64,000 bases of DNA. Origin: Candidatus Bathyarchaeota archaeon (GTDB lineage: Archaea; Thermoproteota; Bathyarchaeia; Bathyarchaeales; Bathycorpusculaceae). Below the pieces are notes generated by a model that did not search any database, was not told the origin of the DNA, and was given only the letters and a program-made list of their open reading frames with translations. A program made the position numbers and the translations under genes. Each line of letters opens with the position of its first letter. Position 1 is the first letter of the stretch. Of this stretch, positions 10,971 to 55,373 are shown one piece after another. The stretch is from NCBI GenBank assembly GCA_963833575.1, contig CAWHXY010000007.1, positions 480,001-544,000 of the forward strand. Direction: 5' to 3'.

Positions 10971-11657
10971 ATGATTGACCTTATTCCAAATGTAAGCGTT
11001 ATAGTGCCTGCTTACGATGAGCAAGGAACAATCTATGAGGTCATTTCAGAGTTGCTTCGCCTAAGAAAATTAATTCCTTCTATGGAGATAATAGTTGTTG
11101 ACGATGGTTCAACTGACAACACCTCCTTAATTGCATCCAAGTTTTCCTCAATAAAACTAATCAAGCACCGTAAAAATATGGGCAAAGGTGCCGCTCTCCA
11201 AACAGGTTTTCGAGCCGCCAAAGGCAAAGTAATAGTGATTCAAGACGCCGATATGGAGTATTATCCCCGTGAGATCCCCCGTATCATTCATCCAATCTTA
11301 ACTGGAAAAGCAGATGTAGTTTTTGGGTCAAGATTTAGAAAAAAACCCTCTGGAATGGGTATGTCACACTTTCTTGGAAACATTATGCTCTCTTTTGTTG
11401 CAAGCGTAATATATACAGCAAGAATAACTGATATCATGACAGGGTACAAAGCATTTTCCAACAAAGTCTTAGAATCAGTAAATATAAGGGAAAAAGGTTT
11501 TTTGGTTGAAGTAGAGTTAACCGATCAGATTCTTCAAAACGGTTGGCGTTTTCAAGAAGTCCCAATAGACTATACGTACAGAAACGAAGGGATTTCGAAA
11601 ATAACAAGCCGAGACGGATTAAAAAGCTTACTTCTTATCTTTTCCCGGATTGTCTAG
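10971..11657 (+). CDS. GT2 glycosyltransferase (DPM1-like)
   Basis: VPAYDE, VDDGSTDNT, NMGKGAA, QDADMEY, DVVFGSRF, TDIMTGYK. Confidence 0.92.
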   Translation: MIDLIPNVSVIVPAYDEQGTIYEVISELLRLRKLIPSMEIIVVDDGSTDNTSLIASKFSSIKLIKHRKNMGKGAALQTGFRAAKGKVIVIQDADMEYYPREIPRIIHPILTGKADVVFGSRFRKKPSGMGMSHFLGNIMLSFVASVIYTARITDIMTGYKAFSNKVLESVNIREKGFLVEVELTDQILQNGWRFQEVPIDYTYRNEGISKITSRDGLKSLLLIFSRIV

Positions 11658-11837
11658 CGTGCGCTGGAATTGTTTCAATAGTTCAATTGCGCCCAGAAAG
11701 TATTTAATTGGGTTTGCCCTGCTTCGGTTCAATCTTTTCTGCGACTGGATAGGCAGATACAGGATAAGGTCTTCAAGACAATTTTAACATTTTCAAAACC
11801 GTTAGAAACTCTAGGATAATACTGAAAGGGTGTTTAG

Positions 11838-13049
11838 TTGAAGGTTCTCTTCTTGAGCGCCGCGCACAGTCCCTCTTGGACAGGAGGAGGGTCGGGCGTT
11901 GCTAGGATTTTGCGCACTTCGCTTTCGGAACGAGGTATGAAAGTCAGTGCTGCCTGGTTTCCTCGCTCGTTTATGGATATGCAGCTTTTCAGCCAGTTGT
12001 CGACCAAGCCCTTGTCAGTACTAAACTCGGAAATTGTTCACATGTACCGGTGCTGCATACAAAAGAACCGGCCTGACGTGATTATTACGGATTACGACAT
12101 TGATCTTTCAGCTTTCTGGGCAAGTGTACTTTCGGGGATTCCCACAATCGCACAGGCTATGACCCCTTGGCCTATATGCCCAAAAGGTGACCTTTTCGTT
12201 TCAATTCGGCATACACGGTGCGAAGGACCAAATTTAACTTGCGGACAATGTGTGGCTAGTAAATCTGGATTCCGAGAAATGAGACCATTTTTGATGTCTT
12301 CATTAGCTAATGTATCCTTAGCAACGCTTACTCTAATTGAATTAAACAAAATCAGGCGGATCAGGTCTAAACTAGACTCTGCTTCGGCAATAGTCAGCTG
12401 TGATCTGTTTCTGAAAAACAAATTGGTCCAGATGGGTTACGATCCTATAAAAATTCATGCGATTTATAATGGTGTCGATCTGAATAAAATCAAGCCCGTG
12501 GCACCCGTGACAATTAGGAGCAAAGAAAAAATCGTTCTGTTCCTAGCTTATCAAGAAACTGAACATTCACAAGCGATAAAAGGTTGTCACCATTTTGTTC
12601 AACTTGCGAAAAGCCTGAAGCCAGAGTTTCCCGACGTAAGATTCCTGTGGGTTGGGCGGCAACAGATTCAAGCAGACAGCTTTGAAACTAAAAGTTACAT
12701 TTGGAATGAGCAGGATCTTCATGAAACGTATAGATCAAGCTATTTGCTCCTCTTGCCGTCTTTGTGGCCGGAAACAATGAGTTACTCTGTTCAACAAGCA
12801 ATGGCCCATGGAAAACCCGTAGTAGCTTACGACACTGGAGCAAACAAAGAAGCAATAATCCACAACGAAACTGGCCTGCTGGCGGAATGGGGAAACATCA
12901 AGCAACTAACAGCGCACGTACGATCACTTCTGCTAGACGAGAGGACAGCCATACGCATGGGAAACAACGCCAGAAAGGTAGCAGAAGCTAAGTTTGGCAT
13001 AGAAAAAATGACAAATGATTACGTAAAGCTTATAGAAGAAATAGCATAA
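11838..13049 (+). CDS. GT4 glycosyltransferase with Cys-rich insertion
   Basis: IYNGVD; PSLWPETxxxSVxQAMAHGKPVV; CPK..C..C..C insert. Confidence 0.88.
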   Translation: MKVLFLSAAHSPSWTGGGSGVARILRTSLSERGMKVSAAWFPRSFMDMQLFSQLSTKPLSVLNSEIVHMYRCCIQKNRPDVIITDYDIDLSAFWASVLSGIPTIAQAMTPWPICPKGDLFVSIRHTRCEGPNLTCGQCVASKSGFREMRPFLMSSLANVSLATLTLIELNKIRRIRSKLDSASAIVSCDLFLKNKLVQMGYDPIKIHAIYNGVDLNKIKPVAPVTIRSKEKIVLFLAYQETEHSQAIKGCHHFVQLAKSLKPEFPDVRFLWVGRQQIQADSFETKSYIWNEQDLHETYRSSYLLLLPSLWPETMSYSVQQAMAHGKPVVAYDTGANKEAIIHNETGLLAEWGNIKQLTAHVRSLLLDERTAIRMGNNARKVAEAKFGIEKMTNDYVKLIEEIA

Positions 13050-13188
13050 ACACGAACAGTATTAGAATAAACTCACTTTATGCGCTGGTTTATCAGCTCT
13101 GATTGATAGGCGCATAGTCTTTCATAAACAGTCGAGAATACAAATGAAGCATAATTAAAATTAGGTCTCAGTCAAAGAATTACTATCT

Positions 13189-14374: not shown

Positions 14375-15481
14375 TTGATGCAGTTGATGGAAAATACGTT
14401 AAACTATGTGGGTTTTAGACCTCGCAATTATAATTTGGGTGATGAAGCTCTATACCCTATCGATCAAGAAATTTTTGCAAGATATAATCTTAGACTATGT
14501 CGAATAGCTGATCCACTCAGGCAGAAGCATAGCCAAACATCACTAATAGGTGGTGGAACATGTCTACCTCTGATTGCCTGGTATATGCGACCCACAAAAT
14601 ACGTTTATGTTTTTGGGGCGGGTGCCGGTGAACGTGCGGTTAATCAACGACTAATCGAAAGATTCACATCACTAAATTTCAGGCTTGTCGGCGTAAGGGG
14701 CAGAATTTCAAAAGCTATACTTCGAGAATGGGGATTAGATTCCGAAGTAATAGGCGATCCGTGCCTAAGCCAAAAACCTACGGGAGCCTTGGACAGACGT
14801 AATAACAGAATTGCCATAAACATTGGCGACGCCAAGGATAATTACTCATTGAAAAGCACATTCCAAACAATCAAAGAGTTGGTCAAAGTTTGCAAGGTCT
14901 TGAAAGCTGACGGCTATGAACTTATTATAGTTCCATTTTGGAAAGAGAATATGGAAAACGTCAAAAGCCTCTCCGAACAGACATCTATCAAAGTCTTCGA
15001 TAACTGGCAAGATATCGGAGCGACTATGAATTTGCTCTCTTCCTGTAAGGTGTTTATAGGGGAGAAATTGCATTCTCTGGTTTTTAGCGCTGCCGCAAAC
15101 ACACCCTTTATAGGACTCGCGTATGCACCTGAACATTTTGACTTCGCAGACAGCGTTGGGTTTTCAGATTTAACCATGCCTACTAATGCAACTACAGCTG
15201 AAAAGATCCTGCTCATGTTCCATGAGGTCATTAACAATTACGAGACGCTACAAAACAGATTAGCTGCCAACGTCAACGAATATCGCGAAAAGCAACGCCG
15301 ATTTGCAGAAAGAATAAGTTCTGATATCGAATCTTTACCCGCAGATAAGTGGGCCGTTCAAAACACCTTTGGAAATACATTAGTTATGGGGGCAGATCGT
15401 GTTCTATACTCAAGAATGAAGAAAATGTGGAGTGTTTGGGATACACTTATCTTCTCTCGTATAAAGCGTTATCTCGCTTAA
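14375..15481 (+). CDS. Polysaccharide pyruvyl transferase family protein
   Basis: NLGDEAL, GGGT, GVRGxxS, GDP, KLHSLV motifs. Confidence 0.8.
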   Translation: MMQLMENTLNYVGFRPRNYNLGDEALYPIDQEIFARYNLRLCRIADPLRQKHSQTSLIGGGTCLPLIAWYMRPTKYVYVFGAGAGERAVNQRLIERFTSLNFRLVGVRGRISKAILREWGLDSEVIGDPCLSQKPTGALDRRNNRIAINIGDAKDNYSLKSTFQTIKELVKVCKVLKADGYELIIVPFWKENMENVKSLSEQTSIKVFDNWQDIGATMNLLSSCKVFIGEKLHSLVFSAAANTPFIGLAYAPEHFDFADSVGFSDLTMPTNATTAEKILLMFHEVINNYETLQNRLAANVNEYREKQRRFAERISSDIESLPADKWAVQNTFGNTLVMGADRVLYSRMKKMWSVWDTLIFSRIKRYLA

Positions 15482-15531
15482 TTTTTAGAAGTTTGGGAAT
15501 TGAGTTTTCAAATCGACGAATGTGATTCATC

Positions 15532-16785
15532 ATGAAGATATTCATTACCAACAACGGGTGCGAGGTAAGCCAACTTTATTCAACGTACATACACAAGTGT
15601 TTTCTCAACCTTGATCCAGGAATAATATTAGTAACAAGTCCTCGAGAAGCCGACTTGATAGTCTTCTATGCTTGCGGACTCACTGAAACTAAAGAGGAAA
15701 AATCGCTTTCCATAATTGAAGTTCTTAAATCGATGATGAAACCCTCGGCCAGACTAGTTGTTTGGGGCTGCCTCTCAAAGCAAAACCCCCAATCATTGAA
15801 TGGCACATACATTGGTCCCATCATTGGTCCCAAGGATGTATTCCCCTTTGAAGCCGTTTTAAAACAAATGATAGATGAATCTAAATGGTCGACTCTAACG
15901 CAAATTCCAGACGCCAATTTCCTCAATATGCGAGAGGCACCTGAATCTAACTCATCAGCCAAGCAAAGTATTCTCTACCATCATCTGACCGACCTCGATA
16001 AGTATCTAACCAGACTATTCTTCAAAACCAATTCTTCACCTTTTTACATAAGAGTTTCCGAAGGCTGCACTTCCCATTGTACTTATTGCAGCGAGCGCCT
16101 CGTTTGGGGAACAGTAAGAAGCAAGTCAATCGAAAAAGTAATTTCTGAATTTGAAGATGGCTTGGAAAAAGGGTATAGAGACTTCTTCCTCTGTTCAGAA
16201 GACTTCGGGGCATACGGCTTGGATATCGGCTTAAATGCTTGTGATCTGCTCAAACAGTTAATACAAGTCAAGAAAGAAGCAAATTATAGAATAATTATTA
16301 ACGAATTAAGCCCTCTGCACTTAAAAAATATGTTTTCAGACTTTGAACAAATCTTCGCTTCTGGAAGAATAAGCACGCTAGGTGTTCAAGTGGAATCGGG
16401 CAGCGATAGGATTCTCAAATTAATGGGCAGGCAGTACAAAGCGGAAGAATGGAGAAACCTAATGTTATACATTAATCGAAAATTCCCGAGCATCAATCTC
16501 TCAACGCACTTAATGGTTGGTTTTCCTACAGAAACTGAAGAAGATTTTAGAGCTACAATGAATCTTCTTAGGCGCCCATTGACCCTTCAGGAAATAGTAA
16601 TCTTCAAGTTCTCACCAAGACCAGGCATCCCAGCAGCGAAACTGGCTGGACAAATACCAAAAGATGTTATCGAACTGAGGGCAAGAAAACTGCACCGAAC
16701 GTTTTTGTATACCTACCCATCGAACATGGCAATTCGTTATTCATATTTGCTCGTCAAAAAATTAAGCCATCATTCAGTAAACTAA
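15532..16785 (+). CDS. MiaB/RimO-like radical SAM protein (methylthiotransferase fold) without a recognisable TRAM domain
   Basis: UPF0004-type Cys triad (NGC, ADLIxxxAC, WGCL); GCTSHCTYC; ESGSDRILKLMGR; VGFPTETEEDF; FSPRPG. Confidence 0.88.
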   Translation: MKIFITNNGCEVSQLYSTYIHKCFLNLDPGIILVTSPREADLIVFYACGLTETKEEKSLSIIEVLKSMMKPSARLVVWGCLSKQNPQSLNGTYIGPIIGPKDVFPFEAVLKQMIDESKWSTLTQIPDANFLNMREAPESNSSAKQSILYHHLTDLDKYLTRLFFKTNSSPFYIRVSEGCTSHCTYCSERLVWGTVRSKSIEKVISEFEDGLEKGYRDFFLCSEDFGAYGLDIGLNACDLLKQLIQVKKEANYRIIINELSPLHLKNMFSDFEQIFASGRISTLGVQVESGSDRILKLMGRQYKAEEWRNLMLYINRKFPSINLSTHLMVGFPTETEEDFRATMNLLRRPLTLQEIVIFKFSPRPGIPAAKLAGQIPKDVIELRARKLHRTFLYTYPSNMAIRYSYLLVKKLSHHSVN

Positions 16786-16934
16786 ATGGTCAACTGCCCT
16801 CAAAGCAATGTAAATATGGAAACAACAAAAAGGCATGTGGGTTAGAAAAGCGCGCGCCCTGAAAACATCATCTCAGTCTATTGTTTTAGATTAAAGAACA
16901 GAAAAACGAATAATTTATTGGGAGTGATTAACTG

Positions 16935-18287
16935 TTGAAACCGATTAATGTCTTCGAAGAAGGTAAGTTTTCAGATGATCAACAACAGAGCTTTAACGAG
17001 TTTCTCTTAAGTGCCAAGTCTCAAAATCTAAACACTCAAGTCATAAAGCAATTATTTCTAAAGCCGTATCTTCCAGCTATTGAAATCTGCAGAGAGTTCG
17101 AAATTAGCAAGGCTCAGCTTGAAAAAACCCACGACTTTATCAGATCGTCTAAGAAAAGCAGAGACTTTTTTGCGGATTCTCCCTACTCATATTTGGTTAA
17201 CGCAATGGGACAGTTATCAAAGGATGCCAAGCGGACGTTGGCAGTCGTTAAAGGTGAAGAACCTCTTCCTTTATCGGATGTTCTTGAACTTTTTGTCAGC
17301 AACTCTTGCAACGCGAATTGCAAATTCTGCTACAGAAACGATAACGTGTATCACCGTCGAGATAAAGTTCTCTCCACTTCAGAATTTGTGCAGTTAATAA
17401 ACGATTATGCGGACTTGAACGGGCAAAATCTTGTTGTGAGTGGTGGTCTTGAACCTCTACTCAGCTGTTCCTTGCTAGATGTTCTGAAAACTGGAATAGA
17501 GCGCAAACTGAACGTACAGCTGTACACAAATGGCATTGCACTTGGTGAAGATAGTGAGATTACGGAACAACTTATGAAGCTACCAAAAGTCAGAATCAGC
17601 CTTAACGCGTCTAACAGAGAAAACTACAAGGAAATTCTGGGAGTAGACAAATTCGATCGGGTTATAGAAAATTTGAGATATCTCGTTGAAACAAAGAGGA
17701 AAAGTAAATCGAGTGTTAGGATCGGCGTTGGCTTCGCAATTTTCAGACAAAACTATTCATTCATCCCTGAGGCTTTAGAACTTGCACAAAAACTTGAACT
17801 TGATTTCGTAGACCTGAGGTTTGTTGAAAAATTAAGTCGTGAAGAAATCGACCCCCAACAAAAGACAGAGTTAAGATCTGTTATTGCCGAGGTGAGACAA
17901 AAGAAAATGCGAAATGAGTATGGAGCGCTCAATGTAACTGTTGCAGACACCTTTAACTCAGTCATTAGCCCTGGAACTGATTGCATGAAATACGTCAAGA
18001 AAGATTTGGTAAAAGAGCTCTGGCACTTCAGGATTACCGTTACGCCACACGGGAGGGTCTATGCTTTGAACCTAATTGGTCAACCTTCAAGGGAGGACAA
18101 TCGGTTTCTGATAGGCAAAATAGGTCAGAACGATCTCTCCGCAATACTACGCAAGGAAAAGAAAATTCCTTATGATAAAAATACCTTACTTGCTCATGAC
18201 ATTACCTTAATGCTGGCACTTTCTAAATTAACCTCCGATTTGGAGTACGGAATTAGCTTAGAAGAAAACCCGTTTTGCTGGGAGTAA
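16935..18287 (+). CDS. Radical SAM enzyme resembling DesII (NDP-4-amino-4,6-dideoxyhexose deaminase)
   Basis: CNANCKFC; SGGLEPL, LYTNG, RISL, DFVDLR, VTPHGRVY, RFLIG in the same order as motifs recalled for DesII; radical SAM certain, DesII call inferred. Confidence 0.75.
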   Translation: MKPINVFEEGKFSDDQQQSFNEFLLSAKSQNLNTQVIKQLFLKPYLPAIEICREFEISKAQLEKTHDFIRSSKKSRDFFADSPYSYLVNAMGQLSKDAKRTLAVVKGEEPLPLSDVLELFVSNSCNANCKFCYRNDNVYHRRDKVLSTSEFVQLINDYADLNGQNLVVSGGLEPLLSCSLLDVLKTGIERKLNVQLYTNGIALGEDSEITEQLMKLPKVRISLNASNRENYKEILGVDKFDRVIENLRYLVETKRKSKSSVRIGVGFAIFRQNYSFIPEALELAQKLELDFVDLRFVEKLSREEIDPQQKTELRSVIAEVRQKKMRNEYGALNVTVADTFNSVISPGTDCMKYVKKDLVKELWHFRITVTPHGRVYALNLIGQPSREDNRFLIGKIGQNDLSAILRKEKKIPYDKNTLLAHDITLMLALSKLTSDLEYGISLEENPFCWE

Positions 18288-18472
18288 TCTTAAGAGAAAT
18301 CAGATTTGAATTTGCGAATTGAACCAAAAAGAATCGCTAGCGCGCTAGTTGCAGACATCAAAGGTGTTTTGGAAAATTGGGATGCTTTGGCCATCAGAGC
18401 AAACTCGTTAAACAAATCCAAACGCGTAATTGAATTGGCTTTCGGACAGAACTACGATGGGGTTGAGGTTGC

Positions 18473-19561
18473 GTGATTAAATTTATAGATTTTGAGAGAG
18501 AATTTGCGGAAATAGGTGAGAAAGCAGCAGAAGCCATGCTGACGACCCAAAAGAGTGGCCGTTTTGTCCTAGGCGAGAATGTAGAACAGTTTGAAAAAGA
18601 GTTTTCCCGTTATGTTGGAGCCAGATTTGGAATAGGCGTAAATTCCGGCTCTGACGCACTGTTTCTAGCAGTTAAAGCCCTAGGGATTTCCAAAAATGAC
18701 GAAGTTATCACTGTTTCGCACACCATGTGTTCAACTGTTGATGCAATAAGCAGAAACGGAGCCAAACCTGTTTTTGTTGACATCGAACCCGACACGTTCA
18801 CAATGGACGTCTCAAAAATTGAGACTAATATTTCGGATAGGACACGAGCGATAATACCTGTTCACCTTTACGGTCAACCAGTAGACATGACTCCACTGCT
18901 CAGAATTGCAGAAGAGCACGATATACCAGTAATCGAAGACGCATGCCAAGCCCATGGCTCGACATACTGCAACAAACAAGTAGGAAACTTGGCAGATATT
19001 GGTTGCTTCAGTTTCTACCCCACAAAAAACCTCGGCTCCTATGGCGACGCAGGCATGATTACCACGAACAACAAAGAACTGGCGGAAAAACTGGCAAAAA
19101 TGAGAAACTACGGTCAATCCACAAGGTACAGTCAAGATTTTGTGGGCATAAACAGCCGATTGGATGAAATCCAAGCGGCAGTACTACGGGTAAAACTGCA
19201 AAAATTAGACGAATGGAATGAAAGAAGAAGAAAAAACGCCAAACTCTACAATGATCTCCTAGAAGACAAGAATATTACAACGCCTATCGAAAGAGAATAC
19301 GCCAAACATGTATATCACTTGTACGTAATAACCCACAATAAACGTGACGGCCTCAAAAACCATTTAATGAAAAACGAAATTCAAACGTTGATACACTACC
19401 CAACTCCAGTTCACAAGCAGAAGGCATACGCAACAAAAGCAAACCTTCCCATAACGGAAACAACATGCGAAAGAATTCTGTCACTACCTATTCATCCTTG
19501 GCTAAACGAAGATGAGGTCAGGAAGATATCTGACTGCATCACCGAGTACTGCAGAAACTAA
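18473..19561 (+). CDS. DegT-family aminotransferase (FdtB/DesV/EryC1-like 3-aminotransferase)
   Basis: [52 protein letters not shown]. Confidence 0.93.
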
Positions 19562-19940
19562 AAATAGAGTCAGTTTACACCGTGGTTATTATAAAGCGCG
19601 CCCTTGGGAAGGTCTCATCTTGATGAAAAACTGTTTCGCCATTCTTGTCTGCTCACGCAGCACGTCCGCACTAGCTATTATAGACCGAGAGCTTTATTGT
19701 TCTCTTCACGACAAATATTATGAATTCTAAGAATAGATTCCTAATTTAGCTCACCGCTGTTCCTGCTATCGAGTCTGTACGCAAGCCAATTAAAGCTGAA
19801 TTTGATTAGGTCACGGGCGAATACAATGACGGCGGAAAAATATCCTGCAAACTCGAGCAAAAGCCAAAAAATCCCAGTTTTTGTTGTGTTAATGTTCAGA
19901 TTATCATAAACCAATCACTTTTGAGAAGCGTTCAACCGAA

Positions 19941-21110
19941 ATGAGTCTGACAACAACTATCGTTACAGATTCAAGCAGACTCGCTGGAATTGAAAAGGAA
20001 TTGAATATTTTTGTTCAAGAGTGGGGCGAAACTCCTTTTGGGTTACCAGCATTTCTCAAAGCAGGAATGAACATCTGCAATTCTAAGGGAAATCAATTTC
20101 CCGCAATTCTACTCACAAAAGTAGATGGGAAACTTGTTGGTCTGACATCCTTAGCGATACGACGACTTTATGGAATTCGTTATGCTGAATCTCTACTTGA
20201 CTTTTGGTCTGGCACTGATCTTGTAATGGACGATGATTACAGGCAAATTGTGACAGATCACATTTTACGAACTATTTTAGAGAAATTGCAGTGTAAATTA
20301 GCAATGCTATACTTGCCGCTTGAATCATCATATCTGCAAGATTTGCAGCGGACTTGCAAATCTAACAAACTACACTCCGTCCTTGACTTTGAACCGTATA
20401 TAAGTCATGGTGTTGTGTCAACAGAGCATTCTTGGAGTGAATTTTTGAAATTTAGGGGGAGATATTTCCAAAAAGACCTCAGAGCCATAGAAAGAAAGTT
20501 GAATACTGCGGGCAAATGGAAAGTGACACTAATAGAAAATAACATTGGTTGTAGCGAAGAGAACATATATGACAAGATAATTTCTATTGAAAAATCAAGC
20601 TGGAAAGAAGTCTACAGGCAAAACAAAGGGAAACCCGTTGATGAAACGCTCAAATGGTTAATGGAGTCATCTAATTTAATTATAGACAATAATTCCATTT
20701 TGAAGCGAAAAATTTGGTTTTTGCAACTTAATGATCGGCCCATCGCTTTTTCAATAGTTCTCGAATACAAGGGGACTGCCTTCATTATGAAAACGTCGTT
20801 TGACGAGAAGTATCGGAAACTGAGTCCGGGGATTTTTATCAACAACATCGCAGTTAAGGATTTATTTGACAAACGAGAAGTTAAAAAGATCGACTTTATG
20901 TCATCCATGCCAATTGTAAGCACTTGGGGTCCCAAAATTTTGCCAAGAGTCAGGTTTAATTTGGGTGGTCGAAGCGGCATTGGTACACTGAAAGTTAGGC
21001 GTATGATCAAAAAGCTTGTTTCCGAGCTTGAGCACTCAGAAAAAACTTGGCCTTTCTACTTTACTGCCAGAGAACAACTCAAAAAGTCAAAAAAGCACAT
21101 TACGTGGTAA
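19941..21110 (+). CDS. GNAT-family acyltransferase (CelD/BcsL-like)
   Basis: SWxEFL..R..FxKxLRxxERKL; IEKSSWK; KTSFDEKYRKLSPG; IDF. Confidence 0.85.
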   Translation: MSLTTTIVTDSSRLAGIEKELNIFVQEWGETPFGLPAFLKAGMNICNSKGNQFPAILLTKVDGKLVGLTSLAIRRLYGIRYAESLLDFWSGTDLVMDDDYRQIVTDHILRTILEKLQCKLAMLYLPLESSYLQDLQRTCKSNKLHSVLDFEPYISHGVVSTEHSWSEFLKFRGRYFQKDLRAIERKLNTAGKWKVTLIENNIGCSEENIYDKIISIEKSSWKEVYRQNKGKPVDETLKWLMESSNLIIDNNSILKRKIWFLQLNDRPIAFSIVLEYKGTAFIMKTSFDEKYRKLSPGIFINNIAVKDLFDKREVKKIDFMSSMPIVSTWGPKILPRVRFNLGGRSGIGTLKVRRMIKKLVSELEHSEKTWPFYFTAREQLKKSKKHITW

Positions 21111-21258
21111 GGATTATCTGGTAGCGCGCACTTCCACAATTCCAATTTTTGCGCCTCAAACTTACTTCCTGCCAAAACTCCAAAACGCAAGTGGCTCTTC
21201 AGAGGCGACATCAAAGAAAAATAGATGCTGACTCCTTCGTACTAAGTACGCACTTAAC

Positions 21259-22467: not shown

Positions 22468-22561
22468 TAGCTATTAGTAGATAATGGACTATTATGATAA
22501 ATTCCTCGATATGCTTTCTAGAAATGCTGAAGGATTAGGATTAAACACTTGGTAGGTTATA

Positions 22562-27843: not shown

Positions 27844-27876
27844 TATAAATGCAAAAACTCTAATGTGTGGTCTAAA

Positions 27877-30199: not shown

Positions 30200-30334
30200 A
30201 TCATTTTTTTCTTAGCGCGCCGCGCGAAAAAGTCTATTAAATCTTTAGGCTTCAAATTAATTTTAGCTTTACCTCTTGTCTTATTCCATGCTTTTAAGAA
30301 TGATTGATGCCTAATTACGAACGGCTTATCGTCT

Positions 30335-45062: not shown

Positions 45063-45487
45063 AACTAATCCTTGACTCCAGTATTCTTTCAAAACTGGTG
45101 TTGAATGAGTCTGATTCTAAAGAGGCTAGAACTGAGGTCAGCGACTTCTTAAAAAAAGGATACACTCTTTGCACAGTAGACATAGCATTGGCTGAGTGTC
45201 TAAATGTAATTTGGAAACATTCAAACTTACTAAAAGATCTAGAGCCCAAAGAAGCAAGCTTGGCGGCGCAAGACCTCACAAAACTGTATGATGCCTTATC
45301 AGTCACCCCGACAAGAGAGTTAAAAGATGAAGCAATGCAAATTGCCATATCTCAAAACATAACTGTATATGATGCATTGTTCATAGCGGCCACGCAAAAA
45401 ATAAACGCCACTCTATACACAGCAGACAAAAAACTCTACTCTAAAACAGATAAACACATAAAATCAAAACTGCTAACAAAAGAATAA
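45059..45487 (+). CDS. vapC: VapC PIN-domain toxin, apparent ATA start overlapping the vapB stop
   Basis: (I)KLILDSS, E..N.IWK, YDALFIA, TAD PIN motifs; the first PIN strand and Asp lie upstream of the ORF-track start at 45098. Confidence 0.88.
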   Translation: MKLILDSSILSKLVLNESDSKEARTEVSDFLKKGYTLCTVDIALAECLNVIWKHSNLLKDLEPKEASLAAQDLTKLYDALSVTPTRELKDEAMQIAISQNITVYDALFIAATQKINATLYTADKKLYSKTDKHIKSKLLTKE

Positions 45488-45674
45488 ATAGTTCTGAAAA
45501 AATCATTTGGATCCATTGTACTGTACCACCTCACTTGCTATTTTTTTTACCATTTCGTTCTGGTTAGTCGTGACTATCCCCGTAATAATGTTTTGAAAGA
45601 CAATTTAGGCCTAATATGCCGTTATCATTCTCCCATCAAAGCGGAGATAACGAGCACCTAACTGTAACGAGGCT

Positions 45675-46091
45675 TTACTGGCAAACTTTTTGCAGAAAAT
45701 CTTTCGCCTGTGGAATTTTGTCTTGCCATTTCTCTGCTTCATTGATCCAATGCTGTCGCCAATCTCGGTTAGGATGAGGATCATTCCATTGGCTAAAAGC
45801 TAATCCAAATGATCTAGCTTTTTCGTCTAGTTTCTGTTTCTCTTTTTGCTCTTCACTGGTAAGTTTTTGCGGTTGCTCTTCTGGAATGAGTTTTCGTGAG
45901 TATCGGTATTGATATTTCTCGTACACTTCTTTTGTGATTAAATGTTCCTGGTAAGCCGCTTTCGTGAGTAAGAGAAGCCCAGCGTAGGATTTGCCAAGTT
46001 CGTGTGCCGCCTGAAATTTAATTATTGCAAAATAAAGTTCGGGCGGTAAACAAAGTTTCATTATGTGTTCTTGAGTGAATTCTTTACCCAT
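45675..46091 (-). CDS. Module gene C: 138 aa, N-terminal RHH-like DNA-binding motif
   Basis: HIMKLCLPPELYFAII...GKSYAGLLLL strand-helix-helix; 5 aa differences from 59585-60001. Confidence 0.75.
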   Translation of the reverse strand: MGKEFTQEHIMKLCLPPELYFAIIKFQAAHELGKSYAGLLLLTKAAYQEHLITKEVYEKYQYRYSRKLIPEEQPQKLTSEEQKEKQKLDEKARSFGLAFSQWNDPHPNRDWRQHWINEAEKWQDKIPQAKDFLQKVCQ

Positions 46092-46219
46092 CTTGATTCC
46101 TTCCTCTTTATCCCGCTTTCCAAGAAGGAAAGACGTTTGGACAATGTTAACGTAGTAACAAATAGGAAAATAGTAGACTTAACTAGCTAGCTACCTGAAA
46201 AAAAAAATAAAAAAGCTAC

Positions 46220-46768
46220 CTACCCTCCATCTTCGCTTTCTTGGTTTTGAGAGTTCTTTTCATCTGAATCGTTTAAATCTTTCAACTGGCTGATTTCTTT
46301 ACAATTATCTTCATAGAATCCTCTAGGAATGCGAAACAGATGTGCTCCATTTTCTTTTAGGTCTGAAAGAAATTCTTCTCTGTCTTTATCGGTCCAGGTA
46401 CGCATATGGGATAGGCATTCGGATAGATCTGTTTCGAAATTGTAAAAATGCAGCTTAAAGAAGTAATCAACAATTTCCTTGTTTTGGCCACCCGCTAACA
46501 AAGTCGTTGCAACATAGCAGTAAAGATCTGTTACACGCCTAAAGATTACTTCAGAGGGTTTGAGGAGTAATTCTGCGTTCTTGATTAGAATTTCTTCGTC
46601 TCCGGTTTTTAGCCACTCTTCTTCTATGTCATTGACTTTTTGGAAAAGGATCCTTTCAGCGTCTGAGAAAGACTTGAAATCAATATGGATTATCTCTTTA
46701 GGGTCAGGGTCGTTGATTTTCTTTGACAAATTATCAATCCTCTTAACTAATCCGAAATTTTTAACCAA
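46220..46768 (-). CDS. Module gene B: unknown helical protein
   Basis: Paralog at 60131-60728 (LVKRID, FF.LHFYNFETDL, WTDKD, LFRIPRGF). Confidence 0.75.
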   Translation of the reverse strand: MVKNFGLVKRIDNLSKKINDPDPKEIIHIDFKSFSDAERILFQKVNDIEEEWLKTGDEEILIKNAELLLKPSEVIFRRVTDLYCYVATTLLAGGQNKEIVDYFFKLHFYNFETDLSECLSHMRTWTDKDREEFLSDLKENGAHLFRIPRGFYEDNCKEISQLKDLNDSDEKNSQNQESEDGG

Positions 46769-46892
46769 AAATTACCTCTCCGTTTTTCTTGTTTGCCATC
46801 TGCCAAGTTTTTGGAACACAACAACGATAGCATAACCAAAATTTTAGTAACGATCTATTCAAAATTGGTTGAAAAGCAAAGCTGTGAAGTTT

Positions 46893-47285
46893 TCAAGGCA
46901 CAAAAACTCCCTTAGCTGCTAACTTTTCGAGAGCCTTTAATCTGTAAACAAGGTCAGGCAATACGAGTGTTTCATACATCATCGAATTTACCTTGAGCAT
47001 GGTGTTTAGGGCGCCTAGTTGGACTATGGGGTTGTCGGATGAGAGCATTCGTAGGCTGGCTTGGCGGTAGATTTGTTCGTATCTGTTGGTTATTTTGAAT
47101 AGTACATCTTCGGGTTTGGTGATGCTCTGCAGGTAGGGCTGCCAATTTGCTCGGGTTTCGAAATCGTTGTAGAGCGTTCGCTCTGCGCAGCCGTTTTTTT
47201 CGCTTAATTGTTTTATTATTTCTGCCTGGGAGTAACCCAAGCCTTCAAGTTTTAACAATTCTGAACGTCGTTTAGCGACTTCCAA
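46893..47285 (-). CDS. Module gene A: HTH protein resembling terminase small subunits
   Basis: RR..LL.L...G.SQAEI..L......RTLYND HTH plus helical C-terminus; 18 aa differences from 60814-61206. Confidence 0.7.
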   Translation of the reverse strand: MEVAKRRSELLKLEGLGYSQAEIIKQLSEKNGCAERTLYNDFETRANWQPYLQSITKPEDVLFKITNRYEQIYRQASLRMLSSDNPIVQLGALNTMLKVNSMMYETLVLPDLVYRLKALEKLAAKGVFVP

Positions 47286-47524
47286 GAGAATTCACCTTGT
47301 AGACTGTACTTCTAACAAATTTGATTCATGATACATATCGTCAGACAATGTCCAACTGTAGAGCGAGGCCCCTTTCTCTGATTCAAATTCTAATCAAAAC
47401 TTTTCCAAACAGACACCATGCTTTGTCAAGAAACCAAAAAAAGAAGAAGCCACATGACCTAACGCGGACAAAATTAAATTCTCAATTCCAACTAACTTTT
47501 CAAAACTTTGATCTCCCCTAACAA

Positions 47525-48340
47525 TTAAAAAAGAAGCTTGGACAATCTGCGTATTGTTTTGCGGGTCACACCAAAGATTTCTTCAAGCTGTCTTTCTGAA
47601 ATGCCTTCTCCCTGATGTTTCCATACCGCCATATTTGCTGTTCTATAGATGGCTGCAGCAAAAAGTTTAGGCATCTTTTTGGCCGAAGCCTTATTGTTTA
47701 TTTGATAATGGGTCACTTTGTTTTTGGCGAAGTTTATAGTTTCAAGGCTTAATCCTGCTTTGTAGAGCTCTGGCAGTTTTGCTTGGATTAAACTGTTGAG
47801 TTCTTTGTCTGATTTGGCTTTGTCTGAAATTGCTTTTGAATATCTTTGAGCGCATTTCTTGAAAAGAACATTTTTTTCAGAGAGCGCGGGTTTTCCTTTT
47901 ATTCTTAGCGGTTGATTTCCGGTGGGTTCCAGATTTGCCTGCATGTGTGCCGATATTTCCGCGTTGGCGCGGTAGTCGCCTGAGCAATCTATCCAGTAGG
48001 TGAAATATGCTTGACAGGAGGAGCATTTGAAAACTATTAGGTCAAAATCTCCATATTTATGAGTTTTTTCAGAGCGGCAATAGATTTCCTCAAATACGTG
48101 ACTACACTTGGGGCATTTATCCGGGATTATGTCGCGGTCTTCTGTAAGAGTTTCAATTTTCATTTCAACTGAGAAATCTATTTTTTCAATTGCTTTGGAG
48201 TTTAATTCATTAATTATTAATTTTTTTTCCAGACGGCATCTTCCCTCTTTATCGTTAACATTTTTCAAGAAAAACATTGTGCACTGCATTATTGAAATTT
48301 CAAAAATGTGAGCGGGCATTGAAGGCCAACTCTCTCTCAA
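47525..48340 (-). CDS. TFIIB/TFB-like protein (zinc ribbon + single cyclin-like HTH repeat); start uncertain
   Basis: CPKC...CSSC; LFAAAIY...ISERQLEEIFGVTRKTIRR. Confidence 0.65.
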   Translation of the reverse strand: MRESWPSMPAHIFEISIMQCTMFFLKNVNDKEGRCRLEKKLIINELNSKAIEKIDFSVEMKIETLTEDRDIIPDKCPKCSHVFEEIYCRSEKTHKYGDFDLIVFKCSSCQAYFTYWIDCSGDYRANAEISAHMQANLEPTGNQPLRIKGKPALSEKNVLFKKCAQRYSKAISDKAKSDKELNSLIQAKLPELYKAGLSLETINFAKNKVTHYQINNKASAKKMPKLFAAAIYRTANMAVWKHQGEGISERQLEEIFGVTRKTIRRLSKLLF

Positions 48341-48429
48341 TAGAAGGCTAAATTCTGTCCATGAAAACCCCTGAAAACTACCCCATGGACTAGATTCATA
48401 GTTTATGTGTCATGCTAACAACCTGCGTT

Positions 48430-48806
48430 CCACAAGTTTTGGGTGAAGGGGGCTCAGAGACTCAGGAGCATTGGAGCATAGTTCGTTTTAGATCGGCAAA
48501 TATTTTTGCGCAAAAGATATAGTCTCTCGCCTAAAAAGCTATCGGTTATCTTCAGGCTCTCGACACCAAACAACACAAAACCATCCCCTTCCCCACTTAA
48601 AGTTGCAAAACGCCAAACAAAAATAAGCTCAATTCTTAATCATTTAACAAATTCGGGCAGGAAAAACCGACTTTAAACTAGACCAACCCCCTAAAACCGC
48701 AACTTTCTTGCAAACCATCTTTTGAATTCAACCAAAAACCACATAGTCCTTTCAGATCTTTTTTTGCCATTTAATATATTAGTAAACAAATAATTGTGAC
48801 TTGCAA
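48430..48806. other. Conserved non-coding leader of the module, copy 1
   Basis: Aligns with 61265-61634; no ORF conserved between copies. Confidence 0.7.
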
Positions 48807-48852: not shown

Positions 48853-49863
48853 ATGGACAAAATAATACGCGAAGACATTGAAAAAATAAAAAGCAACGTG
48901 AAAGAGGAATTTTTCGCATCAAAAAAAGTCCTGGTAACGGGTGGCGTGGGGTTTATCGGCAGTTGGCTTTGCGATGTGCTTGTTGATTTTGGCGCTGATG
49001 TAACGGCTGTTGATGATTTGTCAACTGGACGAATGAAAAACATAAACCATTTAACGAATACCTCCAAATTTAGGTTTATAAAAGAAGACGTTTGCAAGTT
49101 CCGCAGCCAAGAAAAATTCGATCTAATTTTGCATATGGCGGGACATGCTTCTCCTGACGAGTACCTGGAACATCCAATTGAAACGCTTCAAACCAGTTCT
49201 GTGGGCAGTGCCATTATGGCGGAGTTAGCAAGGAAGAATGATGCTACTTTGCTGTTTGCATCTACCTCGGAGGTTTATGGTGATGCTGAGGTTATTCCTA
49301 CGCCTGAGAGTTACTGGGGAAAAGTTAACCCGATTGGTCCCCGATCATGCTATGATGAGGGAAAACGGTATGCGGAAGCGTTGCTTGTCGCGTATCATAA
49401 ACAATATGGCTTGGATGTAAAGCTGCCGAGGATTTTTAACACCTATGGCCCACGCTTAAGAGAAGATGGGTTGTATGGCAGAACAATGTCACGTTTCATC
49501 CTGCAGGCTTTAACTGGAGAACCGATAACAGTTTACGGTGATGGAAACCAAACCCGATCATTTTGTCATATAACAGATACCGTAACGGGTTTGCTGGAGC
49601 TGGCAGCATGCAAGAAGGCTAAAGGCGAAACCGCAAACATCGGAAACCCCCAAGAAGTAACCATCATAGAACTTGCAAAAAGAATTAAAGAAATAATCAA
49701 CTCCAACTCGCCAATAGAGTTTCGCTCACTACCCAAAGATGACCCAAAAAGACGCTGCCCAGACACACACAAAATAGAAACACTCGTAAACTGGAAACCA
49801 AAAATAACCTTCGAAGAGGGGCTCAAAAGAACAATAACATGGTTTACATCAAACATAGCCTAA
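48853..49863 (+). CDS. UDP-glucuronate decarboxylase (UXS-like SDR)
   Basis: TGGVGFIGS, ASP, ASTSEVYGD, YWGKVNPIGPRSCYDEGKR, QTRSFC, DDPKRRCPD. Confidence 0.92.
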   Translation: MDKIIREDIEKIKSNVKEEFFASKKVLVTGGVGFIGSWLCDVLVDFGADVTAVDDLSTGRMKNINHLTNTSKFRFIKEDVCKFRSQEKFDLILHMAGHASPDEYLEHPIETLQTSSVGSAIMAELARKNDATLLFASTSEVYGDAEVIPTPESYWGKVNPIGPRSCYDEGKRYAEALLVAYHKQYGLDVKLPRIFNTYGPRLREDGLYGRTMSRFILQALTGEPITVYGDGNQTRSFCHITDTVTGLLELAACKKAKGETANIGNPQEVTIIELAKRIKEIINSNSPIEFRSLPKDDPKRRCPDTHKIETLVNWKPKITFEEGLKRTITWFTSNIA

Positions 49864-50129
49864 AAACAGAACAGAAAAACCTCAAGAAAAACACTCTTCG
49901 AATAACTAGAAAATACAGACATGCAGGTTAGTCTAATTTTTCCAAACTCGATAATAAACGCGCTGCTTGAACTGCTATAACAAGTGGCTCTACTTTTTAG
50001 GCATTTTATTTGTGATATAGCATAGCGCGCGCAATATGTTGCATGTATAGCCTAAAACGAGTAAACACTTGTTGCCTTCTTTTGAGAATGATTAACCACA
50101 TTTACCTTAACCAACCTTAGTAGTCCGCC

Positions 50130-50407: not shown

Positions 50408-51058
50408 TTAACTATTGTGCTGGAACATAGAGTCTGAAAGTGAAGGATTAATCTGGATATTGGTGAACGTAGCCGTGTCTCCTGCATTTGTTTGTCCACT
50501 GGGTATGGTGTAAGTATAGCTTCCAGAGCCACCATAGTAGGTTAGCATGTTTACGTATACACCTGCTGACGATTGAACGGTGGACTGAAAAGATGAGTAT
50601 TCGGCAGAAAGGTCAGTCCATGTTCCGCCACTATTTTCCCATACTTTCTGCTGGGCGCCGTTAATAATTAACTCGGTGGTGCCGCTCGAAGGCGTCGTTA
50701 CAACCCACAGTAGCTCTGCGTTAGACGTCCCAATGTTCTTTGCCGCATAATATACCGTATCAATTACTGTGCCATTGCTAGCTCTACCTGTCTCGTTGAA
50801 CTCATAACTGGTTGCAGTCGCAATACCGCTAGTTGAGGTTGAAGTTGGTTTGGGTGTAGCTGTTGCACTTGAACTACTTGTAGCCGTCGCAGTTGGTTTA
50901 GGTGTAGGTGTAGCGCTGGAGCTGGCATTACTGCTACCACGTGTGGCCACATATACGCCGACTCCCACCACAATAACTGCAATGATAACTATTGCAACGA
51001 TAATTAACGTGCTTATAGCGCGCGTGCTGTTTCTATTTATTATTTTTCTTTCTCCCAT
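50408..51058 (-). CDS. Secreted S/T-rich protein with a class III (prepilin-like) signal peptide
   Basis: RNSTRA|ISTLIIVAIVIIAVIVVG, PT/S linker. Confidence 0.7.
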   Translation of the reverse strand: MGERKIINRNSTRAISTLIIVAIVIIAVIVVGVGVYVATRGSSNASSSATPTPKPTATATSSSSATATPKPTSTSTSGIATATSYEFNETGRASNGTVIDTVYYAAKNIGTSNAELLWVVTTPSSGTTELIINGAQQKVWENSGGTWTDLSAEYSSFQSTVQSSAGVYVNMLTYYGGSGSYTYTIPSGQTNAGDTATFTNIQINPSLSDSMFQHNS

Positions 51059-51287
51059 TTTTAATCCCTGTTTTGTATAATTTGCTCTTTGCAAATATAA
51101 GCTTACTACGAACTTTAGTTCCTCAAATGGAACGATTTACGGCGTTTTTTAACTTTCAAGTTGCCTTGGTGTTGGTTAATAATCAATTTTGTGCCCATCT
51201 TCAAAATCTATGGAAAAACTATGGAAATCTATGGACTTGCCATTGTACCCATAGATAGTGCGCGTGTTTGAATATGTGGTTTGAATT

Positions 51288-53312: not shown

Positions 53313-53446
53313 AAGACGAATTTTCCTAACACGCTGGCTTGTCCTTAAATTAAGTCAATGTTTGCTTTCAGGTCGGCAAGAGTTGTTAGAGACCAGAGTA
53401 AGCACCAGCAAAACTTATAACAAATTAGGGTCGGTTGGATTGAAGT

Positions 53447-53644: not shown

Positions 53645-53721
53645 GTATAATACTCATTAATCACTTATTACTTGTTTGTTATGCTTTGGAAAATATGGGC
53701 GCGCTATTGACTACTTTAAAC

Positions 53722-53886
53722 TTATTTAGCCAACCGGTTTTGCCTTATCCCACTGACAGTTGTTGTTTTGCCTGCGCCGTTCGAGCCGAGGAAACCGAAG
53801 ACTTCGCCGTCGTTAACATGCAGCGTAAGGCTTCCAACAGCTGCAAGGTTGCCGAGTTTTTTTGTCAGGTTCTCTGTGCCGATCAA
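53722..53886 (-). pseudogene. N-terminal fragment of an ABC transporter ATP-binding protein
   Basis: [44 protein letters not shown], then unrelated sequence and a stop. Confidence 0.85.
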
Positions 53887-53909
53887 TTTAACATTACCAG
53901 ACTTCTTTC

Positions 53910-54100
53910 TTACTTGTAGGCTAATTTACCGTTTAGTTCACTTTGGGGGGGCAAACGAACAATAAAAGTTGTTCCTTTACCCTCTTGGCTCTCAAAAGTT
54001 ACGGTGCCTCCTAACGATTCGGTCATACGTTTAATTACTGCTAATCCGAAGCCTTGACCCTTAGGCTTTAGTTGAAAACATGGGGATAAACAATTTATTT
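53910..54100 (-). pseudogene. C-terminal fragment of a histidine kinase with one frameshift, paralogous to 1-822
   Basis: KLFIPMFSTK/KGQGFGLAVIKRMTESLGGTVTFESQEGKGTTFIVRLPP. Confidence 0.88.
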
Positions 54101-54208
54101 TTAGCGCGCTTTGGTTAAGTATCCTGATTGTGGGAAATTGAGAAGCCTGATAGGTTACTTGAGGTTAAATATCAGAAAAAAGAATAGCAACCATGGAAGG
54201 TTAAGAAA

Positions 54209-54859
54209 GTGAGAGCAGCGAGTCTTTTCTCTGGGGGCAAAGAATCAGTTCATGCCATATCTAATGTTGAAAACCAAGGTGTAGAGGTTAAGCATTTGAT
54301 TCACGAAATCCCAAGTTTCACATCGCCTCATGCACACAACAATGAAGCCCTAAAAACCCTTGCAAAATCCATGAACAAACATTTCGTAATCGTAGACCTT
54401 CACAAAGGTGAACAAGAACTTGTTGACTCGCTTAAGAACCTCAAGATTGATGCACTCGTTGCAGGAGACATCAACGTTCCTCAACACATAACGTGGCTCC
54501 AAAACATATGCAGTCAAGCGGGCATAGTACTGCTTGAACCGCTTTTCGGGAAAAAAACATCAATCTTGTTTCAGGAAATGTTCAGCGATCCTAGGTTCAA
54601 AGCAACAATCATAGGCGTAAACACAAAATATCTGACAGATGAGTGGTTAGGGTTCACAATAAGCAGTGAAACAGCTGAAGATTTCTTGTCAAGAACGAAA
54701 CAAATAGACCCTCTCGGAGAGAACGGTGAATTCCACACCATAGTTGTTGAGAGTCCTCTCTACTCCAACAAATTCAAAACAAAGGCATTGGAAAAAATAA
54801 CTGAAAAAGATGTGACATATCTTCGCATAACGCTAAATGAGTGGTTAGAACGGACATGA
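54209..54859 (+). CDS. Dph6/diphthamide-synthase-like PP-loop protein
   Basis: FSGGKES, GDI, EPLFG, DPLGENGEFHT. Confidence 0.8.
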   Translation: MRAASLFSGGKESVHAISNVENQGVEVKHLIHEIPSFTSPHAHNNEALKTLAKSMNKHFVIVDLHKGEQELVDSLKNLKIDALVAGDINVPQHITWLQNICSQAGIVLLEPLFGKKTSILFQEMFSDPRFKATIIGVNTKYLTDEWLGFTISSETAEDFLSRTKQIDPLGENGEFHTIVVESPLYSNKFKTKALEKITEKDVTYLRITLNEWLERT

Positions 54860-55373
54860 AAACATTGTTTCCAATAATCCCTCATCTGATGCGGTAGTAT
54901 ATAAGCAATTTTGAGTTTCGTATATTTCATAGGGAGGAGGGATTAAAAAAAATTAATCCAACCAACGACGACCACGACTACCGTTTACCATGTTACGTTT
55001 CTAAAAAATAACAAAGTGTTCACTCGGTTCAGGTAACACATATCATACAAGGGTAAGGTATAGTATATGTAGTGTCGAAATCGAGTAAACACATCAAACT
55101 ACAAAAAATAAGAAAAAATAAAGGAAAACAAGAAAAACGAGCGCGTTATCCAACATTTAGAAGAAAAAATAAGCATTAGCCTGAAAGAATCTATGATGTT
55201 TTAGGCGCGCGCAAACAAGTATGCAACCTCTAAAGAAATAAGAGTAACGTTAGAAAGCTGACTTTACACTATTCAATCAGCCGTTTTGGGGTAATAACTT
55301 GCCTGAGTTTGAAAGGCTGTTCAGCTTGCACTTTTAGAGTTAAAAAGAGTAAGCCAGTCGCCTGTGACTGCGA

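Follow-up and report, generated by a model that had tools for sequence, protein, structure and literature searches.

Short palindromic words that recur between prokaryotic genes are known in several forms. HIP1 of cyanobacteria is an over-represented palindrome present in thousands of copies, genes included, and the REP and BIME repeats of enterobacteria are intergenic hairpin units of 20-40 nt that serve as insertion sites for some insertion sequences (ISs). The attC sites of integrons, imperfect inverted repeats of 60-140 nt with an adjacent tyrosine integrase, lie between cassettes in variable loci. Here we follow the hexamer GCGCGC through a 64,000-nt stretch of the genome of a Candidatus Bathyarchaeota archaeon (contig CAWHXY010000007.1; "the window"), a large surface-glycan locus in which the hexamer stands repeatedly between genes, and we argue with moderate confidence that it forms the palindromic outer tip of the terminal inverted repeats (TIRs) in a lineage-specific family of IS5/IS1182-like DDE insertion sequences, whose solo scars would be the bare hexamers. 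Unlike HIP1 and REP, it has about 70 intergenic loci per genome, no genome-wide excess and no extended conservation. Like attC, it lies between gene modules in variable loci, but there is neither an adjacent integrase nor a structured site.

Among mobile elements, IS5 of Escherichia coli duplicates the tetranucleotide Py-T-A-Pu, most often CTAG (PMC5493358), while a report on IS1272 of Staphylococcus, a member of the IS1182 family, describes new insertions without target-site duplication that replace short target sequences, often just downstream of genes, and that target varied inverted-repeat structures (PMC5678879). The element described below resembles IS5 in its transposase, which has DUF772 and DDE_Tnp_1 domains in about 330 aa, its length of about 1.1-1.2 kb, its TIRs and a short palindrome at the junction; however, the IS5 tetranucleotide is duplicated target, whereas the hexamer here appears to travel with the element. 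With IS1272 it shares a DDE transposase of the IS5/IS1182 group and, at its one filled/empty site, insertion without duplication and with about 6-8 nt replaced; the fixed GCGCGC at both tips and the bare hexamers across the genome set it apart. IS1182 is the best NCBIfam match to the transposase (149.1 bits, cut-off 270), followed by IS5_4 (122.4 bits, cut-off 140), and the second subtype scores 112.5 and 77.1 bits against the same two models. Since these scores fall below the cut-offs, we name the family IS5/IS1182-like and file it in neither. Prokaryotic MITEs (miniature inverted-repeat transposable elements) and solo ends offer a further parallel, in that a multi-copy 469-bp element with the IS TIRs and no transposase occurs here and decays to TIR stubs; unlike theirs, the proposed end product is a palindromic scar of 6-8 bp, which comes to rank first among over-represented intergenic hexamers. 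IS and MITE families with sequence-specific junctions are already known, as is IS1182-type insertion without duplication. A fixed palindromic GC hexamer at both tips, with bare copies that dominate intergenic word counts and mark the junctions of glycan islands, seems to be an undescribed variant. Mobile elements of uncultured Bathyarchaeia are barely described, and a search at the level of listings and abstracts for GCGCGC-linked ISs or for IS elements in Bathyarchaeota returned nothing relevant, which is no proof of absence.

The lead came from the window's own genome (G000; G003 is a second species and other G-numbers are relatives), where several hexamers are followed by TGNCTTGTCCC and bound two inverted, decayed 1.1-kb copies that are 67% identical. 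Both copies (C7:136854-137963 and C7:140205-141305) have GCGCGC on each side and encode a frameshifted transposase with DUF772 and DDE_Tnp_1; in the decayed G000 copy labelled IS_A both transposase domains are present, split by a frameshift. The pair stands around two genes, one F420-dependent oxidoreductase-like and one of the PLD family whose N-terminal domain is of the NgoFVII restriction-endonuclease type (C7:136815-141305), a layout that resembles a composite transposon. An intact copy was found in the relative G019 at 5615-6731 of the 8.4-kb contig L120 (also C57). It encodes a 331-aa transposase matching PF01609 (92.1 bits, cut-off 23) and PF05598 (50.5 bits, cut-off 23.1), has the TIR CAGTTTGTTGCTAAATT and its near-complement, and is bordered by (GC)4 at one end and by (GC)3 at the opposite end. 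The family measures about 1.11 kb and has 17-nt TIRs of two subtypes, CAGYYYGTTGCTAAATT and TGSCYTGTCCCTAAATT; A-type and B-type ends are told apart below. Seven near-identical contig ends of G019 represent the 5' end of the intact IS, and the sequence next to the TIR is GCGC in all seven and GCGCGC in four. A scan that used one genome per species returned 44 IS loci, 43 of them in metagenome-assembled genomes of Bathyarchaeia/Bathyarchaeota with transposases 42-100% identical in amino acids to the G019 query, and the last in another lineage at 29%. Of 62 IS ends examined, 54 adjoin (GC)3-5 (36 with (GC)3, 16 with (GC)4 and two with (GC)5); the other eight have (GC)2 in four cases, a single GC in two and nothing in two. 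The family belongs to this Bathyarchaeia genus and its relatives, with IS matches in 19 of 61 genus genomes and up to 12 per genome.

Because the hexamer is palindromic, IS ends alone cannot separate a target sequence from the tip of the element. The MITE occupies 1933-2401 of L120 (469 bp), has B-type TIRs at both ends, and contains a 122-aa open reading frame (ORF) with a weak MarR_2 match only; matches number 17 in G042, 13 in G019, 10 in G071 and seven in G047, with none in G000. Homology between independent copies is bounded by the outer edges of the hexamers: among MITE copies it runs from query position 13, 14 or 15 to 493, the hexamers lying at 13-18 and 488-493, and among IS copies from 1418 or 1419 to 2540. 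This supports a hexamer that is part of the mobile unit. No direct repeat was seen outside the hexamers when 15 full IS copies were inspected by eye. In G042 one MITE sits directly before a response-regulator-like ORF in the arrangement AAGGT[GCGCGC]TIR...TIR[GCGCG]TTTGG, and the orthologous site is empty in five relatives, reading AAGGT-GCCTGATA-TTGG in G019 (93% identical flank), GCTCTGATAG in G004 and GTCCGGCA in G016, with G062 and G053 similar. The empty sites hold 7-10 unrelated bases, none of the five contains a GCGC run, and there is no target duplication. At this site the hexamers came with the element. Further filled/empty pairs sought from the G019 IS ends and one more IS locus had flanks that could not be aligned close to the junction, and reading frames across 24 IS copies, considered for the length of any duplication, were uninformative, as none of the copies lies in a long ORF.

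The same G019 contig shows what such ends can mean for neighbouring genes. An A-type IS end extends to L120 116 and is followed by a hexamer (117-122), a solo B-type TIR of 21 nt (123-143), a second hexamer (144-149) and a glycosyltransferase module (150 to about 1475) that is inverted relative to 10 relatives and only 68-73% identical to them, versus 82-86% next door. Beyond it lie a degenerate TIR-like stretch just before 1774 (11 of 17 bases, by eye), hexamers at 1774 and 1927, the MITE, and, after its B-type TIR, a hexamer at 2402-2407 that abuts the 3' remnant of an ancestral glycosyltransferase gene from 2408. In 10 of 11 relatives homology (82-86%) sets in at 2408-2410, right after this last hexamer, the eleventh locus being cut; in the relatives the junction falls between GATAGAGG and GATACTG, inside an intact glycosyltransferase gene and with no hexamer. 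At the other side, homology of the inverted module stops at 150-153 in five of the 10 relatives, beside the hexamer at 144-149. In these alignments the module replacements stop exactly at hexamer/IS-end junctions. Apart from the runs beside the intact IS, L120 has six hexamer loci in all, which bracket a glycosyltransferase gene and other genes. The 550 nt between a GH130 gene and the IS (L120 5090-5570) consist of other repeats, found at 75-90% identity in many genomes of the genus, which may be a further mobile element family.

Several observations connect the bare hexamers to the IS. On the outer side of 54 IS-attached hexamers, position -1 is A in 25 and position -2 is T in 19, the same bias as is seen around the intergenic hexamers of G000 (A in 66 and T in 49 of 136 half-sites). 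There is no conservation farther out than -2 in those half-sites. The TA or AA flank reported by an earlier first-pass annotation of the window is real but modest. In other genomes the IS flanks hold 36 extra hexamer loci in 58.7 kb (0.61/kb), and the IS bodies one in 27.9 kb. Zones within 1.5 kb of IS-like fragments make up 1.2% of the intergenic DNA of G000 and 2.6% of that of G003, and they contain nine of 69 intergenic loci in the former (about 0.8 expected) and 14 of 74 in the latter (about 2.0 expected). Among the 61 genus genomes, those with more IS matches also have the hexamer at higher density (Spearman 0.53; medians of 75 and 49 per Mb, in genomes that are related and with G+C uncontrolled). 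A decay series can be laid out from the whole IS through the MITE, a 21-nt or 11-nt TIR stub between hexamers and a stub with a decayed hexamer to the bare hexamer. The window has two decayed stubs of the element. At 24791-24860 (minus strand) a 70-nt remnant of the A-type IS 5' region, comprising untranslated leader and first transposase codons without the TIR, has a hexamer on each side; its positions 24797-24852 share 86% identity across 56 nt with IS ends that recur at contig ends of G019, and 24796-24856 is found by nhmmer with the IS profile at E = 0.0024. At 53329-53352 (plus strand) lies a decayed left end of the B-type IS or MITE, ACACGC followed by TGGCTTGTCCTTAAATTAAG, with one mismatch to the TIR pattern, in which ACACGC corresponds to the hexamer after two G-to-A changes.

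Counts of the word itself fit a feature of spacers rather than of the whole genome. The window holds 19 overlapping exact matches that form 15 loci, 13 of them outside long ORFs and two coding (23126 and 51018), as the first-pass annotation had listed; dinucleotide-preserving shuffles gave 5.07 matches (sd 2.27), and none of 100 reached 19. Its 19.2 kb of intergenic DNA thus carries 13 loci, where about 0.6-2.0 are expected when genome-wide intergenic Markov orders 0-4 are scaled to it. The annotation's picture of a non-random motif placed mostly between genes is supported. The window also takes 13 of the 68 intergenic loci in 545 kb (binomial P = 6.7e-7), and no other 64-kb bin of G000 has more than seven. 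G000 as a whole (2.75 Mb in 8 contigs, 41% G+C) is not enriched, with 178 occurrences at 163 loci against 196 (zero-order) or 294 (first-order) expected, and the suggestion of a HIP1-like iterated palindrome falls with this. In its intergenic part (550 kb, 35.7% G+C) there are 82 occurrences against 18, 26, 38, 32 and 58 expected under Markov orders 0-4, which makes GCGCGC the top-ranked over-represented intergenic hexamer under orders 3 and 4, and (GC)4 occurs 13 times against about 0.5-4 expected. The 2.06 Mb of G003 analysed have 87 intergenic occurrences against 36-63 expected and rank the hexamer first under orders 1, 3 and 4; the k-mer enrichment that had been proposed as a check is present between genes in two species and absent from the G000 genome as a whole. 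GCGCGC outnumbers its reverse CGCGCG in all 61 genus genomes searched. Spacers with at least two loci number nine against 2.1 expected, a figure reached in none of 5000 simulations, and in G000 convergent spacers carry 0.225 loci/kb, tandem ones 0.107 and divergent ones 0.086. Chance is excluded as the source of the window and intergenic excess. A pure microsatellite origin was rejected, since other dinucleotide repeats in G000 spacers reach merely 1.1-1.3 times expectation. Within genes GCGCGC is mildly avoided, at 0.71 of the expectation from synonymous shuffling. Several other GC-only palindromes are far more avoided in G000 genes under synonymous-codon shuffles (GGGCCC 0.23, CGGCCG 0.25, GCCGGC 0.55, CCCGGG 0.60), which looks like restriction-site avoidance.

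Comparison with the second species places the hexamers in the part of the genome that changes. We matched G000 to 88% of G003 through 1339 reciprocal best hits (median amino-acid identity 80%) and called a spacer one of conserved adjacency when the two genes that border it lie side by side in the other genome too. With the two genomes pooled, such spacers hold four loci in 131.9 kb (0.03/kb) and all other spacers 137 loci in 794.8 kb (0.172/kb), about a six-fold difference (P = 1e-5). The depletion persists for spacers of at least 150 nt (P = 4e-4) and for convergent and divergent pairs (P = 0.0016), and its persistence there means that it is not an operon effect alone; in G000 by itself it is weak (3/68, P = 0.06). 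No hexamer site is common to orthologous spacers of G000 and G003, and G053 lacks all five window sites that fall between 24 and 40 kb. The (GC)4 at 16850 is absent from the alignable orthologous spacer of G003 and looks like an insertion of 5-8 nt in G000, and the position aligned with the hexamer at 18340 reads TCGCGC in G003. A block of four genes, window 19563-24892, is missing from G003; G000 has hexamers at both of its edges (19596 and 24861), and the undivided G003 spacer that matches the block has one. Together these comparisons show the hexamers to be young and to belong to the flexible genome. Boundaries of within-genome repeats lie within 12 nt of a hexamer in 10 of 1792 clusters, against about 3.2 expected, and four of the ten come from two IS copies. 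A metagenome scan with the radical-SAM protein found no match above 72% amino-acid identity and no close strain. One sequencing run contains the locus, with 21% of sampled words in short contigs at 99% identity or more, and shows no joints or indels; two other runs from that study contain almost none of it.

Under the reading we prefer, the mobile unit would be hexamer-TIR...TIR-hexamer and would insert mainly in AT-rich spacers of the flexible genome, with no detectable target duplication. The window would then be a hypervariable surface-glycan island that has been visited repeatedly, the stubs at 24791-24860 and 53329-53352 having been left behind. Because the tip is palindromic, the two inverted ends double as 6-bp direct repeats, and slippage or microhomology-mediated deletion between the terminal hexamers could remove the element and leave a single (GC)3, or (GC)4 if the register slipped. 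We infer such a scar step for most of the bare hexamers. Each visit would add a hexamer to a spacer previously without one, and the element ends would be points of replacement, inversion and truncation of gene modules; since the ends mark module changes, the hexamers seem to punctuate module junctions. Scars of this kind would account for the insertion-like appearance of the 16850 site, the shared flank bias, the clustering, the decay series and the link to IS load across the genus.

A number of results weigh against this reading. Neither a scar event nor an empty-filled-scar triplet was seen among the relatives compared, which are species-level, and the clean filled/empty comparisons amount to one, between species. 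Over 80% of the hexamers between genes of G000 and G003 are without a recognisable IS nearby, a TIR-like neighbour (at most 3 mismatches) is missing at 11 of the 13 intergenic window hexamers, and G000 contains three decayed IS copies, a few fragments and no MITE, so that the scars would have to outlive the elements. Neutral hexamers should decay quickly, yet most are intact, the stub at 53329 being one example decayed at CpG positions. After the constant GCGC, the next two bases at the G019 ends are GC in four of seven and otherwise GG, GA or CC, and some full IS copies carry GCGCTC or GCGCCC at one side; variation at bases 5-6 among near-identical copies means that the last two may come from the target. 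A 2.5-kb insertion specific to G003 at window 15481-15532 has no motif in either genome, and genes 15532-19561 are collinear in G003 without the intervening hexamers of G000, contrary to a simple junction rule. Truncated-gene fragments abut five of 69 hexamers and 43 of 1000 random intergenic points (P = 0.23). Finally, every split into intergenic and coding DNA comes from our own gene calls, made with ORFs and codon usage, which are crude.

Some of these facts would suit a different origin, in which the IS prefers and duplicates an existing target, either GCGCGC or its GCGC core, as a 4- or 6-bp target-site duplication (TSD). The bare hexamers would be empty landing pads, in excess because every insertion duplicates the target and the IS body then decays; we rate this as possible but improbable. 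A duplicated core would explain why GCGC is constant while positions 5-6 vary in near-identical G019 copies, why no direct repeat lies outside the hexamers, why IS remnants are bracketed by hexamer pairs, and why G003 has a single GCGCGC in its spacer where the G000-specific block has one per edge; (GC)4 or longer at one third of the ends looks as if longer runs had been hit and partly duplicated, and E. coli IS5 is a precedent for duplication of a palindromic tetranucleotide (PMC5493358). However, the empty site of five relatives has no GCGC run where G042 has hexamer-MITE-hexamer, and at two G019 junctions a hexamer stands beside sequence that lacks it in 4 to 10 relatives. Precise loss between duplicated targets brings no net gain, which leaves single excess hexamers unexplained, and a 4-bp TSD needs targets of (GC)4-7, whereas nothing longer than (GC)4 exists in G000. 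The tip of the element is what we favour over a pre-existing target, as a moderately probable choice. A function for the host in the space between transcription units (as terminator or insulator, protein-binding site, or structure-prone (GC)n), carried or targeted by the IS, seems to us quite improbable. The hexamer is indeed the top over-represented intergenic hexamer in two species, convergent spacers are twice as dense in it as tandem or divergent ones, and in the glycan locus it often follows stop codons by 13-86 nt; however, it is depleted about six-fold in conserved-adjacency spacers, long and convergent or divergent ones included, orthologous G000/G003 spacers have no site in common, G053 retains 0/5 of the window sites compared, and conservation is limited to one or two flanking bases. 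Distances are variable as well, at 13-386 nt from stops and 22-504 nt to starts with no position common to orthologous G003 or G053 spacers, which speaks against the transcription element that the first-pass annotation had named as its alternative, and no Rfam family matches anywhere in the window.

That annotation had gone on to suggest that the motif marks crossover or integration points for gene-sized cassettes, integron-like in effect. Its placement of the motif has held up, in that the hexamers belong to the flexible genome, lie at junctions of mobile or replaced DNA in G019 and stand at the edges of the block 19563-24892, although the G003-specific insertion at 15481-15532 is a breakpoint with no motif; the agent, however, appears to be an IS or MITE and not a cassette system. 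To integron-like exchange by a dedicated site-specific recombinase acting on GCGCGC we give next to no credence. Hexamers do bracket gene-sized modules in the window and on G019 C57, and they lie at both edges of a 5.3-kb strain-specific block, but the sites are bare hexamers with no attC-like structure, the window and its surroundings have no recombinase gene, the hexamer adjoins the TIR of a DDE transposon in every place where adjacent DNA is informative, and the only run containing the locus showed no joints, where reads from excised circles joined at GCGCGC had been proposed as a check. The five PF00589 matches of G000 are tyrosine-recombinase genes on C1, C2, C4, C6 and C7 (C1:827, C2:778, C4:4201, C6:133344 and, at 19 kb, C7:19451); three lie less than 5 kb from a contig start, which points to integrated elements at which the assembly breaks. 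That the hexamer is a site of methylation or restriction-modification, or an effect of composition or chance, is likewise very improbable. GCGCGC is a restriction-enzyme palindrome, four loci encode N4/N6-type methyltransferase domains (PF01555), and G+C-rich patches inflate GC-rich words somewhat, other GC palindromes standing at 1.4-1.8 observed/expected in spacers. Yet a search for a C5 methyltransferase, which the annotation had proposed, found none, with no PF00145 match in this 94%-complete genome; the signal is an excess in flexible spacers while the core density of 0.03/kb is about what composition predicts; the excess is specific to GCGCGC, with 26 intergenic loci flanked by A or T against 3-11 for other GC-only palindromes so flanked; and the window count was matched by none of the 100 shuffles.

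If the hexamer is a transposon tip, an apparent chromosome signal becomes testable as a transposon family that can be counted by its palindromic-tip scars. Should the scar step hold, a simple k-mer count would trace past transposon traffic and map the flexible genome of uncultured Bathyarchaeia, and it would account for the module-by-module rebuilding of glycan loci, of which G019 offers examples resolved to the base pair. The lesson for annotators is that a word in strong intergenic excess is not necessarily a signal of the host. More speculatively, and in our view doubtfully, hexamer-tipped ISs and MITEs could be a transposase-based counterpart of integrons for archaeal surface-glycan islands, with ends and scars as reusable joints for the insertion, inversion, replacement or deletion of gene-sized modules; scar density would then both record and promote module shuffling, and the palindromic tip would give near-clean loss of the element yet a permanent mark in the spacer.

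Within the window, the glycan locus encodes GT2 and GT4 glycosyltransferases, DegT-type aminotransferases, radical-SAM enzymes, acetyl- and methyltransferases and an epimerase/dehydratase. Four successive genes (ends 16785, 18287, 19561 and 21110) are followed by hexamers 64, 52, 34 and 13 nt past their stops, and the short junctions 14346/14375, 15481/15532, 23602/23599 and 35517/35514 have none, both as first described. The first of these sites, (GC)4 at 16850-16857, has no recognisable element attached and lies between the radical-SAM gene 15532-16785 and the ORF at 16935, 77 nt before the latter. The others are at 18340-18345, in the context ctaGCGCGCtag after gene 16935-18287; at 19596-19601, after the aminotransferase gene 18473-19561 and at the left edge of the block 19563-24892; and at 21124-21129, after the acetyltransferase-like gene 19941-21110 and within the G000-specific block. 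In the spacer upstream of that gene, 61 nt at 19782-19842 give an 82% match to a G017 contig. The coding hexamer at 23126-23131 is in a Pfam-supported methyltransferase ORF (22562-23602) and is probably unrelated to the IS. The IS remnant 24791-24860 sits at the right edge of the block, its inner hexamer at 24785-24790 overlapping only an 83-aa ORF without a family match and its outer one at 24861-24866 ending 33 nt before gene 24900. Farther on, (GC)4 at 29109-29116 follows the stop of the glycosyltransferase gene 27865-29022 by 86 nt; homology to G053 reaches 70 nt into this spacer and ends at 29092, 16 nt short of the motif, which G053 does not have. At 30215-30220 GCGCGC is followed by cgcgcg in the convergent spacer between 29588-30199 (plus) and 30335-31432 (minus), and at 33965-33970 it lies in a divergent spacer 22 nt before ORF 33993, with no hexamer in the syntenic G053 spacer.

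Toward the right end of the window, (GC)4 at 50025-50032 lies between convergent genes and follows the stop of the epimerase/dehydratase gene 48853-49863 by 161 nt, and the coding hexamer at 51018-51023 is in ORF 50408-51094 (minus), which has a high codon score and no Pfam match. The hexamer at 53699-53704 is some 350 nt to the right of the decayed TIR; the spacer around it is long, poor in genes and contains gene fragments. That at 54104-54109 directly adjoins (5 nt) a 5'-truncated fragment (53907-54098, minus) of a paralogue of the gene at window 1-822, whose 3' end it matches. This gene-poor 0.9-kb spacer contains other pieces that resemble parts of genes elsewhere in the genome (53753-54098), with many weak paralogue matches at 53753-53887. 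The last locus, (GC)4 at 55205-55212, lies between convergent genes, 345 nt past the end of 54209-54859 and 161 nt past the stop of 55374-57218 (minus). A segmental duplication links window 45426-48772 with 59344-61625 in three pieces of 92%, 78% and 84% identity, and a third partial copy at C7:600332 begins right after (GC)4. Similarly placed is one of about 20 scattered paralogues (65-72% nucleotide identity) of a 998-aa ORF (1271-4267, minus) within window 1081-4275; this paralogue begins right after (GC)4 at C7:456979. Elsewhere in G000, about 140 nt of a spacer at C7:400623-400760 are well conserved in G003 while the rest is unalignable, and could be a small RNA or a regulatory region; they are followed by about 470 extra nt in G000 that start near GCGCGC.

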